Part shown: piece after piece, positions 7,957 to 42,876 of the stretch
How the letters are laid out: each line of letters opens with the position of its first letter
Position numbering within the stretch: position 1 is the first letter of the stretch
NCBI GenBank assembly: GCA_965242785.1
Contig: CBDETA010000001.1
Coordinates: 79,444 to 143,443, forward strand
Direction: 5' to 3'
Source of the DNA: an uncultured Maricaulis sp.
GTDB lineage: Bacteria > Pseudomonadota > Alphaproteobacteria > Caulobacterales > Maricaulaceae
Length of the DNA: 64,000 bases
Notes under the pieces: model-generated
What the model was told of the DNA's origin: nothing
Database searches by the model: none
Seen by the model: only the letters and a program-made list of their open reading frames with translations
Program-made: the position numbers and the translations under genes

Positions 7957-8586
7957 CTACTGGCTGACCCAGACGATCCGCGCCATCCAGTCCAGTGCGC
8001 TGAGTGCGACCTGCTGGTCCGGAAGCTCCGGGTTGAGCGGTTTCAGCCGCACCGCCTGGATGCCCTTTTCCACCAGTTCAAAGGCCTTGGCCTCGCCGCC
8101 GCGTAGCTTGACCACCACCCGGTCGCCCACGCGCAGGCTCTCGCCCGGCGCCACGATCAGCCGGTCGCCGGGCCGGTAGACCGGCAGCATCGAGCCATCC
8201 GATACCGTCAGCGCAAACCCGTCCTCGGTGCCGGCGGACGGCGCGGGAATGCGGGTCCAGCTGTCACCGCTCGGTCGGCCGCCGGCATCAAAGGCCGTGC
8301 CCGTGTCCTCGTTCAGCATGCGCGAGGGCAGGCTGTCGCCCGTGCCGGCTGGCCGCCCGGCAACCAGGGCGGCAAACCCGGCAAAATCCATGTGCGCCGC
8401 ACTCAGCGCCTTGGCCAGGCTTTCGGTGGAAGGCCAGCGCGGCTTGCTGCCATCGCGCGAGACCCGCTTGGACGGGTTGAACGTCGTCGCATCCAGCCCC
8501 GCCCGCCGGGCCAGCCCGGACGGGCTGGTCTGCGCATGCGCGGCCAGACGGTCGATCCCCCGCCAGATTTCCTCATGGGTGAACAT
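7957..8586 (-). CDS. HTH + S24 peptidase-like transcriptional regulator
   Basis: MFTHEEIWRGIDRLA...LDATTFNPSKR...RWPSTES N-terminus; DGSMLPVYRPGD S24 motif. Confidence 0.85.
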   Translation of the reverse strand: MFTHEEIWRGIDRLAAHAQTSPSGLARRAGLDATTFNPSKRVSRDGSKPRWPSTESLAKALSAAHMDFAGFAALVAGRPAGTGDSLPSRMLNEDTGTAFDAGGRPSGDSWTRIPAPSAGTEDGFALTVSDGSMLPVYRPGDRLIVAPGESLRVGDRVVVKLRGGEAKAFELVEKGIQAVRLKPLNPELPDQQVALSALDWMARIVWVSQ

Positions 8587-8721
8587 GACGGCCACAATAC
8601 TCCGCGTCGGGCAGTTAGGAAAACTGTCCGCACTGCGGGTGAGGCGATCGTCCATCAGGCGCCGGAAAATCTCCCGGTCCCGGCACTTGCCCCGATGCGC
8701 GAGCGGGGCTAACCCGTCGCC

Positions 8722-9079: not shown

Positions 9080-10111
9080 ATGCTGCACGATTTCGCGACC
9101 GGCCTTCTGCGCAAGATGGATCCCGAGACGGCGCACCGCTGGACGGTGCGGGGTCTGAAATGGGGTTTCGGACCGCGCGATGCGGCGGGCGATGATCCGG
9201 TCCTGGCCACCCGCCTTGCCGGCATCGACCTGCCCAACCCGGTCGGCCTGGCCGCCGGTTTCGACAAGAATGCCGAGGTGCCCGACGCGCTGCTGCGCAT
9301 GGGGTTCGGCTTTGTTGAATGCGGTGCGGTGACGCCGCGCGCCCAGGATGGCAAGCCGCGTCCGCGCATCTTCCGCCTCGAGGAAGACCGCGCCGTGATC
9401 AACCGCATGGGTTTTCCCAATCAAGGGCTCGACCTGTTCCGCCAGCGCCTGGCAGCGCGCGTCGGCAAGCCCGGCATTGTCGGGGTCAATCTGGGCGCCA
9501 ATCTGGACAGCGAGGACCGGGTCGCCGACTACGTCGCCTGTCTGGACGGGCTGAAGGGGTTGGCGCAATTCTTCACCGTCAATGTCTCCTCACCCAACAC
9601 GCCCGGCCTGCGCACGCTGCAATCCTCCGGTGCCCTGGATGACTTGCTGGCGGCTGTGGCGGCGGTGCGCGATGCGGCGCCGGTCTTCCTCAAGATCGCG
9701 CCGGATATCGAGGATGCCGAGGTTGAGGTGATGGCGGCGGCCGTCGGGCGTCACCAGCTGGATGGTGTCATCGTCTCCAACACCACGATCACCCGTCCGG
9801 AAAGCCTGCAGAGCCCGCTGATGGGCGAGGGCGGCGGTCTGTCCGGCCCGCCGGTCTTCCAGCGCTCGACCGAGCTGGTGCGCCTGTTCCGCAAGGCGCT
9901 GGGGCCGGATGTGGCGATCATCGGTGTCGGTGGTGTCGACAGTGCGCAGACGGCCTATGCCAAGATCCGCGCCGGCGCCAATGCAATCCAGCTCTATACC
10001 GCGCTGGTCTATCACGGTCCCGGCCTGGTCGCCGAGATCAAGCGCGGCCTCGCCGAACGGCTTCAGGCCGACGGTTTCGCCTCGGTCTCCGAGGCGGTCG
10101 GGGTCGACTGA
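9080..10111 (+). CDS. pyrD: Quinone-dependent dihydroorotate dehydrogenase
   Basis: NPVGLAAGFDKN, INRMGF and NVSSPNTPGLR motifs. Confidence 0.95.
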   Translation: MLHDFATGLLRKMDPETAHRWTVRGLKWGFGPRDAAGDDPVLATRLAGIDLPNPVGLAAGFDKNAEVPDALLRMGFGFVECGAVTPRAQDGKPRPRIFRLEEDRAVINRMGFPNQGLDLFRQRLAARVGKPGIVGVNLGANLDSEDRVADYVACLDGLKGLAQFFTVNVSSPNTPGLRTLQSSGALDDLLAAVAAVRDAAPVFLKIAPDIEDAEVEVMAAAVGRHQLDGVIVSNTTITRPESLQSPLMGEGGGLSGPPVFQRSTELVRLFRKALGPDVAIIGVGGVDSAQTAYAKIRAGANAIQLYTALVYHGPGLVAEIKRGLAERLQADGFASVSEAVGVD

Positions 10112-35708: not shown

Positions 35709-35951
35709 ATGTCGTTCGACGTCGACGTTCAGGGCAATATGACCAAGAACTTCGCGATGATCGTCGCGACCCTCTTGGGAGCGCTGATCGGCGGGATCGC
35801 CGGGTCATTTTTCGGTTCTGCCAGGACCGGTGCCGCGGTCGGCGTCGGTATCGCGATTACGATCTCCCTGATCGTCCTGCTTCCACTGAAATTCGAATCC
35901 ACCACGGACGCCGCCGCAGACGGCGATGCGTCTGACGAGGAGAAATCCTGA
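35709..35951 (+). CDS. Small glycine-zipper membrane protein (cassette B)
   Basis: Two GxxxG TM segments; same C-terminal 14 aa as cassette A. Confidence 0.6.
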   Translation: MSFDVDVQGNMTKNFAMIVATLLGALIGGIAGSFFGSARTGAAVGVGIAITISLIVLLPLKFESTTDAAADGDASDEEKS

Positions 35952-38167
35952 TGTCCTTGAAAAACTTCACACTCGAAATCGACAATGACGGCATTGCCCT
36001 GGTCACCTTCGACAGCCCGGGCAAGTCGATGAATGTCATCTCCGCCGAGGTCATGGACGACTTCGACGCGCTGACGAAGACCATCATTGAAGATGACGCC
36101 ATCAAGGGTGTCGTCATCACCTCCGGCAAGGACGCCTTCTGCGCCGGAGCTGACCTGTCCGAACTGGGCGGGTCCTCGGCCGAGCTGGCCAAGCTGCCGG
36201 AAGACGAGATGAAGGCGAAGCTGTTCGAGCAATGCTTCCGTCTCAACAAAACCTTCCGCGCCCTGGAAACCTGCGGCAAGCCGATTGCCGCCGCGGTCAA
36301 CGGTCTCGCCCTGGGCGGCGGGTTCGAGATTGCGCTGGCCTGTCACTACCGCGTCATGCCGTCGGACAATCCCAAGGCCAAGCTGGGCCTGCCGGAAGCC
36401 ATGGTCGGCGTGCTGCCCGGCGGTGGCGGCACCCAGCGCCTGCCGCGCCTCGTGGGTGTCATGAATGCTGCGCCGGTCCTGCTCCAGGGCCAGCAGCTGG
36501 ACGCCGCCACGGCCCTGGCCCAGGGCATTGTCGATGCCACGGCGCCGCTGGCCGAACTGGTCGATCATGCCAAGGAACTGGTGCGCAATGATCCCAAGGG
36601 GGCGAAACAGCCCTGGGATGGCGACAAGTTCAAATTCCCGGGCGGTGGTCCCTACCACCCCGCCGGCGCCCAGATGTTCGGGGCCGCATCGCCGATGCTG
36701 CGCAAGAACACCTATGGCAATTATCCGGCCCAGCGCTACATCCTGTCCTGCGTCTATGAAGGCAGCCAGGTTTCCATGGACCAGGCGATCCGCATCGAGA
36801 GCCGGTATTTCACCAAGCTTCTTCTGCGTCCGGAAAGCCGCAACATGATCCGCTCGATCTTCCTGTCCAAGCAGGACCTGGACAAGGGCGGCCGCCGGCC
36901 GGCCAGTCAGTCCAAGGCGGACGTGAAGAAGATCGCCATCATCGGCGCCGGCTTCATGGGGGCGGGCATTGCCACGGTTTCCGCCCAGGCGGGCATCGAG
37001 ATCGTGCTGATCGACGCCACCCAGGAAGGCGCCGAGAAGGGCAAGACGCATTGCACCGATCACTTCGCCAAGGGCGTCGCCCGCGGCAAGCTGAGCCAGG
37101 AGAAGGCCGACGCGCTGGCCGGACTGATCACGCCGACCACCGACTACACCCTGATCAAGGATGTCGACCTGGTCGTCGAGGCCGTGTTCGAGAATTCCGA
37201 ACTCAAGGCCAAGATCACCAAGATGGCGGAAGAGCAGATCGGCGAGACCGCCGTCTTCGGCTCCAACACCTCCTCCATCCCGATCACCGACCTGGCCAAG
37301 GCTTCGGCCCGTCCGGAGAATTTCATCGGCATCCACTTCTTCTCGCCGGTCGAGAAGATGAACCTGGTCGAAATCATCATGGGCGGCAAGACGGGCGATT
37401 ACGCCCTCTCGCGCGCCATCGATTTCGTCACCAAGATCAAGAAGACGCCGATCGTCGTGGCCGACACGCGCGGCTTCTACGCCAATCGCTGCGTCATGCG
37501 CTATGTCGGTGAAGGCCTGAAAATGCTGGGCGAGGGCGTCAAGCCGGCCCTGATCGAGAATGGTGCCAAGATGGCCGGCATGCCGGTCGGCCCGCTCTCC
37601 CTGCAGGACGAGGTGGCGCTGGATCTGGGTGTGAAGCTGATCAAGCAGACCCAGTCCGATCTCGGCGACAATTACAAACCCTCCGGCACCGAGCCGATCC
37701 TGTTCAAGATGGTCGAGGAGTATGACCGTTGCGGCCGCAAGAACGGCAAGGGCTTCTATGACTACCCGTCCGAGAAGGGCCAGCCGAAACGCCTCTGGCC
37801 GGAGCTGGAACAGTTCGCGCCGGGCGGCAAATACCTGGCCGACCAGCCGGACGTCACCGAGGTGAAGGACCGCATCCTCTACGCCCAGGCGCTGGAAGCG
37901 GCGCGCTGCATGGAGGAGAAGATCGTCTCCGATCCGCGTGAGGCCGATGTCGGCTCGATCCTGGGCTGGGGTTTTGCGCCCTATACCGGCGGCACGCTCT
38001 CCTTCATCGACACGATCGGTGCCAAGCCCTTCGTGAAACGGGCCCAGGAGCTGGAGGCCCAGTATGGTGACCAGTTCACCGTGCCGGCACTGCTGATTGA
38101 AATGGCCGAGAAGGGTGAAACCTTCTATGGACGCTTCGGCGCCAAACAGCTGGAAGCCGCCGAATAG
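35951..38167 (+). CDS. fadJ: Fatty-acid oxidation complex alpha subunit (enoyl-CoA hydratase/3-hydroxyacyl-CoA dehydrogenase, FadB/FadJ-like)
   Basis: [34 protein letters not shown] and HFFSPVEKM motifs. Confidence 0.93.
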
Positions 38168-38192
38168 GCGCGCCCGCCAGGCTGAAGACAAG

Positions 38193-38225
38193 ACCGGCGC
38201 AGGGCCCCTGCGCCGGTTTTTCTTT
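38193..38225 (+). terminator. Intrinsic terminator of the beta-oxidation operon
   Basis: ACCGGCGCAGG-GC-CCTGCGCCGGT followed by TTTTTCTTT. Confidence 0.85.
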
Positions 38226-38249
38226 GCCCGAATCCCCGAATTTCCGGCC

Positions 38250-38299
38250 TGTGGAAAGTTTTCCCCACGCTGTCCACAGTTTCGCGAAACTTGTCCACC
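38250..38299. promoter_or_regulatory. Cluster of four DnaA-box-like 9-mers
   Basis: TGTGGAAAG, TTTTCCCCA, CTGTCCACA and TTGTCCACC (7-8/9 matches to TTWTNCACA); GANTC at 38230. Confidence 0.5.
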
Positions 38300-38339
38300 G
38301 GGAGCGGCGACTTCTCCACCAAACGGCAATTTCCGTGCG

Positions 38340-38368
38340 TTGCGGGGGCGGATGTCCGGTGTTCTAAT
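38340..38368 (+). promoter_or_regulatory. Sigma70-type promoter for the putative large ncRNA
   Basis: TTGCGG-N17-TCTAAT; predicted TSS about A38375. Confidence 0.55.
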
Positions 38369-38374
38369 TTCCTC

Positions 38375-39073
38375 ATCGACAGCGACCGAAGCGGGCCTAG
38401 AAACCCGGGGGTCGCCGGAAAGGACGGCTCCGGAAGAGCCCGGCCCGCAAGGGCAGGACCTCTCAGGAGCAGCCAAGGGAAAGGCCCTCGGGCCGGACTT
38501 GCGGCAGGTCCCCAGGCCAACAGCTCCCTCACCGGAGTATGAGACCTGGAGGGCTGGTCAGACCGGTGGCACCGCACCGACCGCAAGGGCGGGAACCAGG
38601 ACGCAGCGATATCGGCGCCATCTCGGTGGTGCCGGCCACGGTTCCTCAAGAACCGGGGTAGGCGGACGGGGACAGCCTTCGGGCCCACCCGGAAGCCGGA
38701 GCAGACAGGCGGGGTCTTCGGATCACGCATGGATGCAGGCGCAGCGGGGCGGTCTTCGGACCAGAAACGCGACGCCGCGCGGACGGGAAAGGCCTTCGGG
38801 CCGGGAACGGACGCGTCGCCGGAAGGCCGGGTCCTCGGACCTGCCGGACGGTACCGCTGACGGGCCGGGTCTTCACGACCCGGACCCCGAAGCAAAAGCC
38901 GACGGGACCGGCTCTCGGGTCAGTCCCTGACGCATAGCCAAGGGACCGGTCTTCGGATCGAAACCTGCGGCAAGCGGATGGTGCGGACGCTCTCACGGGC
39001 ACCCGGATCCTGAAGCAACACGGCCGCCCGCCTCCTCACCCGTCAGGGTCAGGGACGGGCGGTTGGTGCTTTT
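38375..39073 (+). ncRNA. Putative large (~700 nt) structured non-coding RNA
   Basis: At least 9 YUCG-capped and 2 GCAA-capped hairpins; G-U pairs only on the + strand; purine-rich linkers; flanking promoter and terminal hairpin with U-tract. Confidence 0.65.
39013..39073 (+). terminator. Terminal hairpin plus U-tract closing the putative ncRNA
   Basis: AAGCA/TGCTT and GGCCGCCCG/CGGGCGGTT stems, apical ACCC-GTCA-GGGT, then TTTT. Confidence 0.6.
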
Positions 39074-39164
39074 GGGCGCCGCTTTCACGGATTTGTCAGC
39101 CGATCTGATGTGACTTTGCGTCCGGATTACGCTGGGTTTACGCCAACCCTGCCTCGGACCACCC

Positions 39165-39287
39165 ATGCCCCGACCCGATCTTGACCCTGCCCGGCCTGCG
39201 GCCTGGCGCCTGGCGCGCCTGACCCGACAGGGCCTGCCCTGGACCGTTCTGCTGCTGCTGATATTCGCCTTTCAGGCGATTTTTTGA
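39165..39287 (+). CDS. Putative 40-aa small membrane protein (below ORF-track cutoff)
   Basis: MPRPDLDPARPAAWRLARLTRQGLPWTVLLLLIFAFQAIF*; C-terminal hydrophobic helix; no clear SD. Confidence 0.4.
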   Translation: MPRPDLDPARPAAWRLARLTRQGLPWTVLLLLIFAFQAIF

Positions 39288-39452
39288 GCCATGCATGATG
39301 AATTGCCCGTCACAAGCGTATTGAATCTTCACTGGAATTTCGGCTCGGCCCCAATGCTGAACAAGAGCTTAATCAAATATGAGCTGCGTTAACCAAATCC
39401 CGCGGCAAGATGCGCTTCGCAAACGTCACAAGTGCTGAGTGATTGAAACCAA

Positions 39453-41844: not shown

Positions 41845-42876
41845 GTGATGCGAATTCTTGTTGCTGTGGTGGCGTTGGTGCTGGGCCTGTCGGGCCTAGC
41901 GAAAGCCCAGATCGACGAACCGGTGATGGAGGCCCTGCGGGCCGGTGATGCTGCGGCCCTGGCCGATGCCTTTGCCGCCGGCGCTGATCCCGAGGCGCGC
42001 TTTGCCGACGGTCTTGAGGCAACGACCCTGATGTATGCCGCCTCCAATCCCGATCCCGCCCTGGTCCGGGCGGTCCTGGCAGCCGGCGCGGCTGTGGACA
42101 CGCCGGACGCGATGGGCGATCCGGCGATCAACTGGGCCGCCTATTACGGCCATGCGGCGGTGGTCGCCGTGCTGGTGGATGCCGGCGCATCCACCCAGCT
42201 GACCGGACACGGCAATGCACTGGAGATCGCCATGCGACGCGGCCACGCCCCGACGCTGGCTGTGCTGGTCGACGCTGCCGGTGCTGCCCCGGTCCGTGCG
42301 GCCCGTGAAAGCGCCCTGGAAGCGGCCATCCTGGCCGGCGATGAAGCGGCTTTTGCAACGCTGCTGGATCTGGTGGATGTGGCCTCGGCCCGCGACTGGG
42401 CCGGCCGACCCCTGCTTCAATCTGCTGCGCGGGCTGGAGAGGCCGACATGATCACCGCGCTGATTGCTGCCGGAGCCGCCGTGGATGCCACCGACGCCAT
42501 CGGCTTCACCGCGCTCTTCGAGGCGGCCCGCGACGGTCAGTTGGAGGCGGTCGACGCCTTGCTGTCTGCCGGCGCTGACGTCGATCACCGCAGTCATGCC
42601 CGTGGTTTATCGCTGACGCCGCTGCATCTGGCTGCGATCGGCGGCGACGCGGCCATCGTCACCCGTCTGGCAGAGGCCGGAGCGGATCTCGATGTTCAGG
42701 GTGCAACCGGCGCCACGCCGCTCTACTGGGCCGCGTTCGAGAACCGGCGCGACGCGGTGGTGGCGTTGCTGGATGCCGGTGCAGACCCGACGGTCCAGCC
42801 CGAGGGCACGCCGGACTTCGCAGCCGTGGCCGACATGATGGACTGGCCCGACATCGCAGAGCGCCTGCGCAACTAG
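41845..42876 (+). CDS. Secreted ankyrin-repeat protein
   Basis: Signal peptide; repeated TPLHLAA/TALFEAA...GADVD units. Confidence 0.9.
   Translation: MMRILVAVVALVLGLSGLAKAQIDEPVMEALRAGDAAALADAFAAGADPEARFADGLEATTLMYAASNPDPALVRAVLAAGAAVDTPDAMGDPAINWAAYYGHAAVVAVLVDAGASTQLTGHGNALEIAMRRGHAPTLAVLVDAAGAAPVRAARESALEAAILAGDEAAFATLLDLVDVASARDWAGRPLLQSAARAGEADMITALIAAGAAVDATDAIGFTALFEAARDGQLEAVDALLSAGADVDHRSHARGLSLTPLHLAAIGGDAAIVTRLAEAGADLDVQGATGATPLYWAAFENRRDAVVALLDAGADPTVQPEGTPDFAAVADMMDWPDIAERLRN

Follow-up and report, generated by a model that had tools for sequence, protein, structure and literature searches.

An uncultured Maricaulis sp. carries a gene for a large structured RNA that belongs to an undescribed family. 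The analysis covers 64,000 nucleotides of its DNA, hereafter the window (GenBank assembly GCA_965242785.1, contig CBDETA010000001.1), and the gene, about 700 nt long, lies on the + strand at 38375-39076. It is a stand-alone, discrete, and abundantly transcribed RNA gene with its own promoter, and the family has so far been found only in Maricaulaceae (Maricaulis, Hyphobacterium, and Oceanicaulis). That this is a real and novel structured RNA gene is very probable. The fuller reading, to which we give a probability of about 0.6, is that the gene produces a stable, structured RNA that acts in trans and is controlled by DnaA. In this reading we infer that DnaA binds, with which sign it acts, that the RNA works in trans, and that it has a partner, either protein or RNA.

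The RNA gene, its fold, and its family

Metatranscriptomes contain the RNA as a discrete unit. In at least 14 runs of marine metatranscriptomes, drawn from five studies, 68-93% of the 31-mers of the region are present. Eight runs were examined, one of which has only 29 million bases, and each yielded one contig with 99-100% identity that is confined to the RNA segment (38375-39001, 38388-39015, 38389-39013, 38388-39039, 38390-39042, 38390-39035, 38400-39011, and 38405-39023). Identity is 100% for 38375-39001, 38388-39015, 38388-39039, and 38390-39042. These eight runs contain no contigs of the same organism over fadJ or the downstream genes, and no transcript contig continues past 39042. One contig begins exactly at A38375, 7 nt past the -10 hexamer TCTAAT, and a contig with a depth of 154 ends at 39035 and then runs into the Illumina read-2 adapter. 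The 3' limit of the gene rests on the trailing UGCUUUUGG, whose pairing shows covariation. The 5' end of the RNA is expected at the A of AUCGACAG and the 3' end after GGUGCUUUUGG.

Two other explanations for the contigs were considered. A spike-in or contaminant could have produced identical RNA-only contigs, and it was rejected because DNA metagenomes carry the locus together with both flanks, at 96-99% identity and with strain variants; the locus is therefore chromosomal. Excision of an intron was considered for a contig (X5) with a joint that skips 613 nt. It was rejected because 294 other letters lie between the conserved ends, and the contig is a shorter orthologue from another Maricaulis species.

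The + strand is rich in hairpins of a kind that is specific to RNA. Within 38375-39073 there are eight hairpins with YUCG loops and stems of at least 4 bp on the + strand (38483-94, 38612-35, 38713-24, 38751-62, 38791-802, 38828-43, 38910-21, and 38947-60) and none on the minus strand. The chance level in 1000 dinucleotide shuffles is 0.17 +/- 0.41, with a maximum of 2. A hairpin with a GCAA loop is found at 38443-54 (+), and all of the stems listed in a preliminary description of this DNA, made from the sequence alone, are present. The + strand was assigned from the restriction of YUCG loops to that strand, invariant G.U pairs, the orientation of the promoter, and an excess of A over T (135 A and 78 T). 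Folding energy was rejected as an indicator of strand, as its z-scores under shuffling are about -3.5 on both strands (-3.55 and -3.38) and thus uninformative.

The region is non-coding, and within the 64 kb it is not a dispersed repeat. Two long open reading frames (ORFs) overlap it, 38097-38930 (+) and 38125-38895 (-), and neither has a Pfam match. Single-nucleotide indels separate near-identical strains at 38509/38512, 38944, 38435, and 38443, which excludes a reading frame, and indels of 1-2 nt occur between homologues. A protein-coding gene was rejected for these reasons. A dispersed DNA repeat, such as a repetitive extragenic palindrome (REP), a miniature inverted-repeat transposable element (MITE), or a bacterial interspersed mosaic element (BIME), was also rejected. 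The 12-nt module GGYCYUCGGRYC has six copies, all of them within the RNA region, and there are none elsewhere on either strand of the 64 kb. Matches to the family profile occur once per locus, apart from genuine paralogous genes.

The RNA does not match any family that was searched. Rfam 15 at gathering thresholds gives no matches in the whole window or in 12 homologous loci. Permissive Rfam scans of the window and of two homologous copies (L043 and L003; L numbers denote homologous loci) give only chance-level scores of 12-24 bits, compared with thresholds of 36-100. The families covered include OLE, GOLLD, ROOL, raiA, HEARO, 6S, RNase P, transfer-messenger RNA (tmRNA), the signal recognition particle (SRP) RNA, CsrB/Rsm, group I and II introns, riboswitches, and alphaproteobacterial small RNAs (sRNAs). 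ARAGORN finds no transfer RNA (tRNA) or tmRNA in the window, and no description of this RNA was found in the literature. The preliminary description had proposed an independent, non-coding, structured, and undescribed RNA of about 700 nt on the + strand, without the signatures of known RNAs. The discrete transcript, the covariation described below, and the searches for families, coding signals, and module copies all agree with that proposal.

The conserved parts of the molecule are a 5' domain, a pair of hairpins, and a 3' domain. The 5' domain (38375-38611, +) starts with AUCGACAGCGACCGAAGC, the Maricaulis form of the family 5' end RUCGR, which is invariant in 15 homologues, and it contains hairpins at 38392-407, 38443-54 (GCAA), and 38483-94 (CUCG). 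Pairing between the RUCGR end and an internal CGAY/UCGA could close the domain. This candidate closing helix, P1, would join 38375-77 to 38608-10, with further pairs at 38382-83/38603-04 and 38386-87/38599-600. Its variants outside Maricaulis fit the pairing (AUCG/CGAU, GUCGAG/CUCGAU, and AUCGG/CCGAU). The local GCGACC/GGUCGC helix proposed in the preliminary description is an equally possible alternative to this long-range pairing. RNAalifold places helices 1-9 in the 5' domain, and compensatory changes are found in helices 3, 5, 7, 8, and 9. The domain is followed by two conserved hairpins at 38612-38657 (+), one of 10 bp with a CUCG loop (38612-35) and one with a CUCAA loop (38639-57). They are orthologous to family helices 10 and 11, in which alignment A1 has compensatory changes in six of nine and four of six pairs, respectively. 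With nhmmer, window positions 38340-38696 align to the part of the family profile that contains these two helices.

The conserved 3' domain (38919-39077, +) ends in a long closing helix. The domain has two or three hairpins in the family; it was delimited with covariance model R1, which matches the window copy over its full length (82.8 bits, E = 7e-14), and nhmmer with alignment A3 also finds it (E = 3e-21). The terminal helix of about 30 bp (39009-39076, +) has the core GCCGCCCGCC / GACGGGCGGU, which is invariant in 36 sequences from at least three genera, and at its base CCUGAAGCA pairs with UGCUUUUGG. The G.U pairs 98-142 and 99-141 are invariant in 15/15 sequences. The apex of the helix is variable and covarying; pair 90-148, for example, is A-U in eight sequences and C-G in six. 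The junction before the helix is CCGGAAGCAAC in Maricaulis and a run of C in Hyphobacterium. The preliminary description had ended the gene with a long hairpin and a U-tract at 39013-39073, as in a terminator. The hairpin is real and strong, but the tract has only 4 U in the window and is absent from Hyphobacterium and Oceanicaulis, and a terminator scan makes no call. The U-tract is paired with the 5' flank and covaries with the junction (GGAAGC...GCUUUU to GGACGC...GCGUUU), so the functional RNA probably reaches about 39076, and the terminal element is better described as a closing helix than as a plain terminator.

Covariation across homologues and selection among strains both support the fold. 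In the alignment of 15 Maricaulis sequences, 95.9% of the cells are paired, compared with 32-50% when the partners are slid by one to three columns. Changes on both sides occur in 27 of 81 pairs, compared with 3-9 in the slid controls, and none of 500 shuffles attains the observed values. A cross-genus MAFFT alignment of the 3' domain resolved the terminal hairpin only, and the covariance model was used instead; in the resulting alignment, which is fitted to the model, 88.9% of cells are paired, compared with 38-50%. The RNA of near-identical strains differs by 3-5 substitutions in 699 nt (0.4-0.7%), while the flanks on the same contigs differ by 4.1-5.8%, a six- to thirteen-fold difference in divergence. 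Strain variants include the compensatory pair C38445U and G38452A, and also G38714A (G.U to A-U) with C38716U (C-G to U.G), which keep both pairs. The RNA is under strong purifying selection over its whole 700 nt.

The YUCG array of the window is not found in most of the family. The expansion occupies approximately 38660-38950 (+) and consists of eight tetraloop or pentaloop hairpins (38675-84, 38713-24, 38751-62, 38791-802, 38828-43, 38862-86, 38910-21, and 38947-60) with purine-rich linkers that are rich in CCGGA; the spacing of the hairpins in 38675-38960 is about 39 nt. It is missing from 15 common-type Maricaulis homologues and corresponds to a single insertion of about 250-320 nt. MAFFT makes 38693-39011 window-only, and nhmmer leaves 38697-38948 unaligned. 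Local pieces are duplicated within the RNA: 38477-96 recurs at 38785-804 with 95% identity, an ACCCGGA..GAAGCAA junction is present in three copies, and internal duplicates D1, D3, D4, D5, and D7 copy ancestral pieces. Sequence comparison indicates that the array is a lineage-specific expansion by internal duplication and not the core of the family. Other members have expanded independently with unrelated modules, including a 184-nt unit present twice in L012/L013, a unit of about 125 nt with some four copies in L132, and additional arrays in L113 and L073. CCGGA and CGGAC are enriched in the window (10 copies with 2.3 expected, and 9 with 2.6 expected). CCGGA enrichment is found in some members but not in L132, L113, L043, or L073, and no k-mer is enriched in all of the expanded members. 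The loops also differ by lineage (UUCG, GNRA, and GUCAAA). The preliminary description was right that YUCG hairpins abound, at eight compared with the 0.17 expected, but the array at about 38660-38950 is an insertion into an RNA whose family core is about 245-380 nt. The GG(U/C)C-YUCG-G(A/G)(U/C)C module that it proposed for binding is not conserved; the homologues have GNRA and other loops in its place, and other modules when they are expanded.

One loop motif, GUCAAA(A), recurs in many members (L003:6725-6740 and L013:7350-7720, e.g. GGUGUCAAAACC and CCGGGGUCAAACCCGG) and is repeated in expanded ones. It may be a tertiary motif resembling a T-loop. The loops of the corresponding hairpins in the window are CUCAA (38639-57) and UUCAC (38862-86).

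Members of the family were found in three genera and vary more than three-fold in length. Homologues identified with blastn, nhmmer, and the covariance model lie on the downstream side of fadJ in all of the Maricaulis loci that were fetched, and also in Hyphobacterium and Oceanicaulis, and a metagenome scan with a terminal-hairpin pattern added 17 further members. The 3'-domain model matches members of other genera with E-values down to about 1e-3. It has no match at the fadJ loci of Robiginitomaculum, Hellea, Hyphomonas, and Bradyrhizobium, a result that tells only of copies beside fadJ. The length between the 5' motif and the end is 244-249 nt in Oceanicaulis and in the smallest members from Hyphobacterium, 275-327 nt in other Hyphobacterium members, and 290-382 nt in most Maricaulis members. 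The RNA of Maricaulis maris DSM 4734 (locus L011, at about 8256-8636) has about 375 nt. Expanded members reach 505, 525, 698 (the window), 701, and 851 nt.

Several loci contain additional copies. Oceanicaulis has two paralogues per locus, in tandem at L057:2030-2282 and 2664-2911 and also at L073:7215-7675 and 9505-9756, each with its own DnaA box and promoter; one of the L073 copies is expanded with GGCAGCAAUGCC hairpins. At L020:8249-8373 in Hyphobacterium, 1 kb past the main gene on its downstream side, there is a mini-paralogue of about 125 nt, and its terminal helix departs from the invariant core by compensatory changes (GCCACCGCUCGCC / GGCGAGUGGUUGG). Isolated copies of the terminal hairpin occur at L126:69-129 and 1783-1847, on either side of a stretch of about 1.6 kb whose two ORFs have no assigned function, and a DUF4328 protein is encoded just downstream of the second copy. 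An att site of a mobile element was considered for these hairpins and rejected, as there is no integrase among the ORFs. The two hairpins may be what is left of genes, or a terminator module that has been reused.

Promoter and DnaA boxes

The RNA gene has a sigma-70-type promoter at 38340-38368 (+), read from the sequence, with a -35 element TTGCGG (38340-45), a 17-nt spacer, and a -10 element TCTAAT (38363-68). The TTGC and -10 T..TA..T columns are kept in 15/15 Maricaulis homologues. A generic promoter scan makes no call at 38340-38368, where the -35 element matches at only 3/6 positions. The intrinsic terminator of fadJ (38190-38225, +) forms the upstream limit of the locus. It consists of an inverted repeat at 38190-38220, with 15-nt arms that are 93% complementary, followed by the T-run TTTTTCTTT. 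These are the two upstream bounds given in the preliminary description, and the inverted repeat and the transcript contig that starts at A38375 bear them out.

Upstream of the promoter are three helically phased sites resembling DnaA boxes (38270-38320, +). They are CTGTCCACA at 38270-78, TTGTCCACC at 38291-99, and TTCTCCACC at 38312-20, with offsets of -105, -84, and -63, and each matches TTATCCACA at 7/9 positions. Two more 7/9 sites lie at 38250-58 (inverted) and 38259-67, so that the window promoter has five sites with two or fewer mismatches in 200 nt, compared with a background of 0.32. The boxes are better preserved elsewhere in the family. Most of 40 homologues from three genera have boxes with no more than one mismatch at -63/-64, -84/-85, and -105/-106, and the background for such boxes is 0.0275 per 200 nt. 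They have a spacing of 21 bp, are oriented along transcription, and lie on one face of the helix. Perfect TTATCCACA boxes are found in Hyphobacterium and in L013, which has three boxes.

DnaA is a transcription factor as well as the initiator of replication. Together with the position of the boxes upstream of a weak -35 element (TTGCGG), this suggests activation, and the conserved arrangement makes control of the RNA gene by DnaA likely. The preliminary description had guessed at regulation by the cell cycle, and the phased boxes across genera lend that guess concrete support at the sequence level. No other non-coding RNA gene driven by a phased array of DnaA boxes was found in Rfam or the literature.

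Other cell-cycle signatures are present in part of the family. GANTC is enriched in the family promoters (1.04 compared with 0.17 per 135 nt). The L015 and L132 promoters have four to five GANTC (CcrM) sites in the 135 nt upstream of the RNA, and a TTAA-N7-TTAA sequence resembling a CtrA box overlies the -10 element. Neither feature is found in the window copy or its clade. These sites suggest extra cell-cycle inputs in the L015 and L132 lineages.

The locus and neighboring genes

The RNA gene lies in a 1.5-kb gap with fadA-fadJ on one side and a generic class I methyltransferase gene and a GST-like gene on the other. The upstream neighbor (35951-38167, +), outside the RNA gene, encodes a FadJ-type fatty-acid oxidation alpha subunit of 738 aa with Pfam domains 3HCDH_N and ECH_1. 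It is 89-92% identical to Maricaulis proteins, with 92% for proteins from metagenome-assembled genomes (MAGs), and FadJ models are its best NCBIfam matches but are below their cut-offs. A 915-codon ORF antisense to fadJ (35729-38476, -) reaches the RNA promoter region; it is almost certainly spurious, an open frame of the sort that GC-rich DNA produces. The neighbors (thiolase, FadJ, class I methyltransferase, and GST-like) are metabolic; none has an RNA-related function, and they were rejected as a clue to the function of the RNA. A chromosomal origin of replication was also rejected for this site, as there is no GC-skew switch in the window and the locus is about 42-80% along the chromosome in complete genomes.

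The RNA gene is independent of its surroundings. In several Maricaulis genomes an extra 1-2 kb separates it from fadJ (L013:6380-6980; also L005, L008, L011, L012, and L049), and the DnaA boxes and promoter stay with the RNA gene there, which shows that it is an autonomous unit. Judging by its sequence, the L013:6380-6980 segment may encode a hydrophobic membrane protein. Gene content and spacing downstream of the RNA gene also differ between loci.

A few other features were observed downstream in the window. At 39165-39287 there is a 40-codon ORF (MPRPDLDPARPAAWRLARLTRQGLPWTVLLLLIFAFQAIF) with a hydrophobic tail, no Pfam match, and a terminator-like hairpin at its end (39265-39279); this stretch has about 67-71% blastn identity at the nucleotide level in four Maricaulis loci (L006, L010, L041, and L080). 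A non-coding block at 39353-39399, TGAACAAGAGCTTAATCAAATATGAGCTGCGTTAACCAAATCC, is 89-94% conserved in other Maricaulis loci. Its layout is GTTAAT..ATATGAG..GCGTTAACC, it holds a TTAACCA resembling a CtrA half-site, and its probable role is to regulate either the small ORFs downstream or the methyltransferase gene. Further away, 41845-42876 encodes a protein of 343 aa that contains several ankyrin repeats (Pfam Ank_2, 1e-34). Such a protein is unusual in a marine alphaproteobacterium that is free-living; the NCBIfam models closest to it are those of Legionella Ank effectors, which it matches far under the cut-offs.

Possible function and comparison with known systems

A DnaA-controlled RNA acting in trans would work as follows. 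Transcription starts at A38375 from the sigma-70-type promoter with its weak -35 element, and DnaA would most likely set the output through the boxes at -63, -84, and -105, probably by activation, tying the level of the RNA to the status of replication initiation. The RNA folds into a 5' domain that P1 would close, a run of tetraloop hairpins, the conserved 3' domain, and the closing helix of about 30 bp with its invariant core; this helix would sequester the 3' end. The likely functional core, which probably binds a partner, would be formed by the terminal helix together with the invariant 5' end, and the hairpin arrays would be expansion segments.

Several points weigh against this reading. 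The window's own DnaA-box-like sites reach only 7/9 positions, and DnaA binding and regulation are deduced from sequence. The RNA evidence consists of assembled contigs without strand, and the adapter-tagged end is compatible with a + strand RNA. All contigs stop short of the 3' arm of the terminal helix (39050-39073), and the RNA may be processed near 39035-39042. Within Maricaulis the long-range helices P1, 2, and 4 show no variation that could support them by covariation. The known distribution comes from sampling near fadJ homologues and from one hairpin pattern only.

More specific functions can be proposed. It is rather unlikely, though conceivable, that the RNA serves as the output of a circuit which senses DnaA and exerts feedback on the initiation of replication or on the cell cycle, or that it assembles with itself into a higher-order particle like ROOL or GOLLD. 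In the feedback version the RNA would be made according to DnaA occupancy, and its invariant terminal helix would bind or titrate a replication or cell-cycle factor, for which DnaA itself, HdaA, and a protease adaptor are candidates. In the self-assembly version the expandable hairpin arrays would tune valency. A base-pairing riboregulator of the cell cycle similar to CcnA or EcpR1 is a doubtful alternative that deserves some weight. A conserved single-stranded patch would pair with the 5' untranslated regions (UTRs) of mRNAs such as dnaA, gcrA, and ctrA, with the rest of the molecule as a stabilizing scaffold; the candidate patches are the C-run beside the terminal helix in Hyphobacterium and Oceanicaulis and CCGGAAGCAAC in Maricaulis. 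The mini-paralogue at L020 8249-8373 and the members of about 245 nt are in the size range of sRNAs, a CCCCCC stretch is conserved in Hyphobacterium, and signatures of the cell cycle are found in the promoters (DnaA boxes, enriched GANTC, and, in L015 and L132, TTAA-N7-TTAA). CcnA itself works through a CCCC loop on GGGG of the ctrA and gcrA UTRs (PMC8959179). However, no single-stranded motif is common to all genera, the C-run is not found in Maricaulis, including the window, CCGGAAGCA pairs with the 3' tail and covaries with it, and selection spans the whole 700 nt rather than a seed.

The variable hairpin arrays could also point to a multivalent protein sponge or scaffold like CsrB/RsmZ or CrcZ, with one protein bound per module of hairpin and linker, as the preliminary description had supposed. 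The number of modules varies, at least four lineages have expanded independently (the window, L012/L013, L132, and L113), CCGGA and CGGAC are enriched in the window linkers, and the expansion is under purifying selection. On the other hand, the expanded members lack a shared enriched k-mer, the variation of loops by lineage leaves no recognition element in common, the loops contain no GGA, the Rfam CsrB/Rsm families do not match, and unexpanded members (245-380 nt) would hold few sites, which makes a sponge unlikely. The presence of three in-phase consensus boxes in the same orientation, conserved across genera and duplicated with each paralogue, raises the question of whether the functional element is the DNA. 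The box cluster would then be a titration or reactivation site like datA or DARS, and the transcript a by-product or a modulator of occupancy. This is very unlikely, as a by-product would not explain the covariation, the invariant G.U pairs, the RNA-specific tetraloops, or the low divergence over 700 nt, and the boxes lie at classic upstream-activator distances from the promoter. The most ordinary explanations are that the region is a leader or riboswitch acting in cis on the downstream genes, that it encodes a protein, or that it is a mosaic of repeats scattered in the DNA (REP or MITE). They draw on the overlapping long ORFs, the internal repeats, and the methyltransferase gene that is often downstream, and they have hardly any probability left. 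The ORFs are broken by 1-nt indels and lack Pfam matches, the module is confined to the RNA region, the transcript contigs end before 39043 with nothing assembled downstream, the downstream genes and spacing vary, tandem paralogues exist, and no riboswitch or leader family matches.

The family may be useful in several areas of study. With lengths of 244-851 nt, and with support from strong expression and covariation, it joins the short list of ornate bacterial RNAs of unknown biochemistry, and its host group is culturable and genetically approachable (Maricaulis maris). The RNA offers a handle on how the replication initiator steers processes beyond replication in dimorphic Alphaproteobacteria. 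The repeated and independent tandem expansions under purifying selection are a natural experiment on the growth of structured RNAs. In addition, the RNA can be assembled from small marine metatranscriptomes that lack the flanking genes of the organism, and it may confound or inform such analyses.

The RNA resembles several groups of known non-coding elements in part. datA and DARS of Escherichia coli are clusters of DnaA boxes at non-coding chromosomal loci away from oriC. The locus described here is likewise non-coding, off oriC, and equipped with several phased boxes, but here the boxes belong to the upstream region of a promoter that drives a structured RNA under selection. CsrB, RsmY, RsmZ, and CrcZ share variable repeated stem-loops, an independent gene with a strong end hairpin, and high abundance. 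They differ in that the RNA here has no repeated GGA (or A-rich) loop motif, no linker motif common to its members, and no Rfam match. OLE, GOLLD, ROOL, raiA, and HEARO are similar in size class (the family reaches 850 nt), in dense conserved structure with many GNRA and UNCG tetraloops, in high expression, and in having no obvious coding or cis-regulatory role. Their covariance models do not match, and they occur mostly in Firmicutes and phages rather than marine Alphaproteobacteria. In contrast to them, the RNA here has no tRNA or prophage adjacency, a small core of about 245 nt with lineage expansions, and a promoter with DnaA boxes.

Other likenesses are found among alphaproteobacterial RNAs. 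EcpR1 of Sinorhizobium meliloti is induced by stress, is about 100 nt long, and acts on dnaA and gcrA mRNAs. It is not known to be driven by DnaA boxes and is unrelated in sequence to the RNA here, which has no match in Rfam. The likeness is that EcpR1 is a trans-acting alphaproteobacterial sRNA with a link to replication and cell-cycle control (PMC4414408). CcnA of Caulobacter crescentus is a CtrA-dependent RNA of 182 nt with a CCCC loop (PMC8959179). It also comes from a dimorphic alphaproteobacterium, acts in trans, and has a promoter wired to a master cell-cycle regulator, and the C-run that is important in CcnA has a counterpart conserved in some members of this family. CcnA differs in being located at the replication origin, in responding to CtrA rather than having DnaA boxes, and in having no similarity in sequence or structure; the window RNA has four times the size of CcnA, an invariant closing helix, and no C-run. 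Overall it appears that the RNA family and its DnaA-box regulatory architecture are new, while the general kind to which the RNA is assigned by its inferred function, a trans-acting structured non-coding RNA, is familiar. By analogy, its closest counterparts in working would be non-coding RNAs wired to the cell cycle, such as CcnA, and in size and ornateness OLE, ROOL, and GOLLD.

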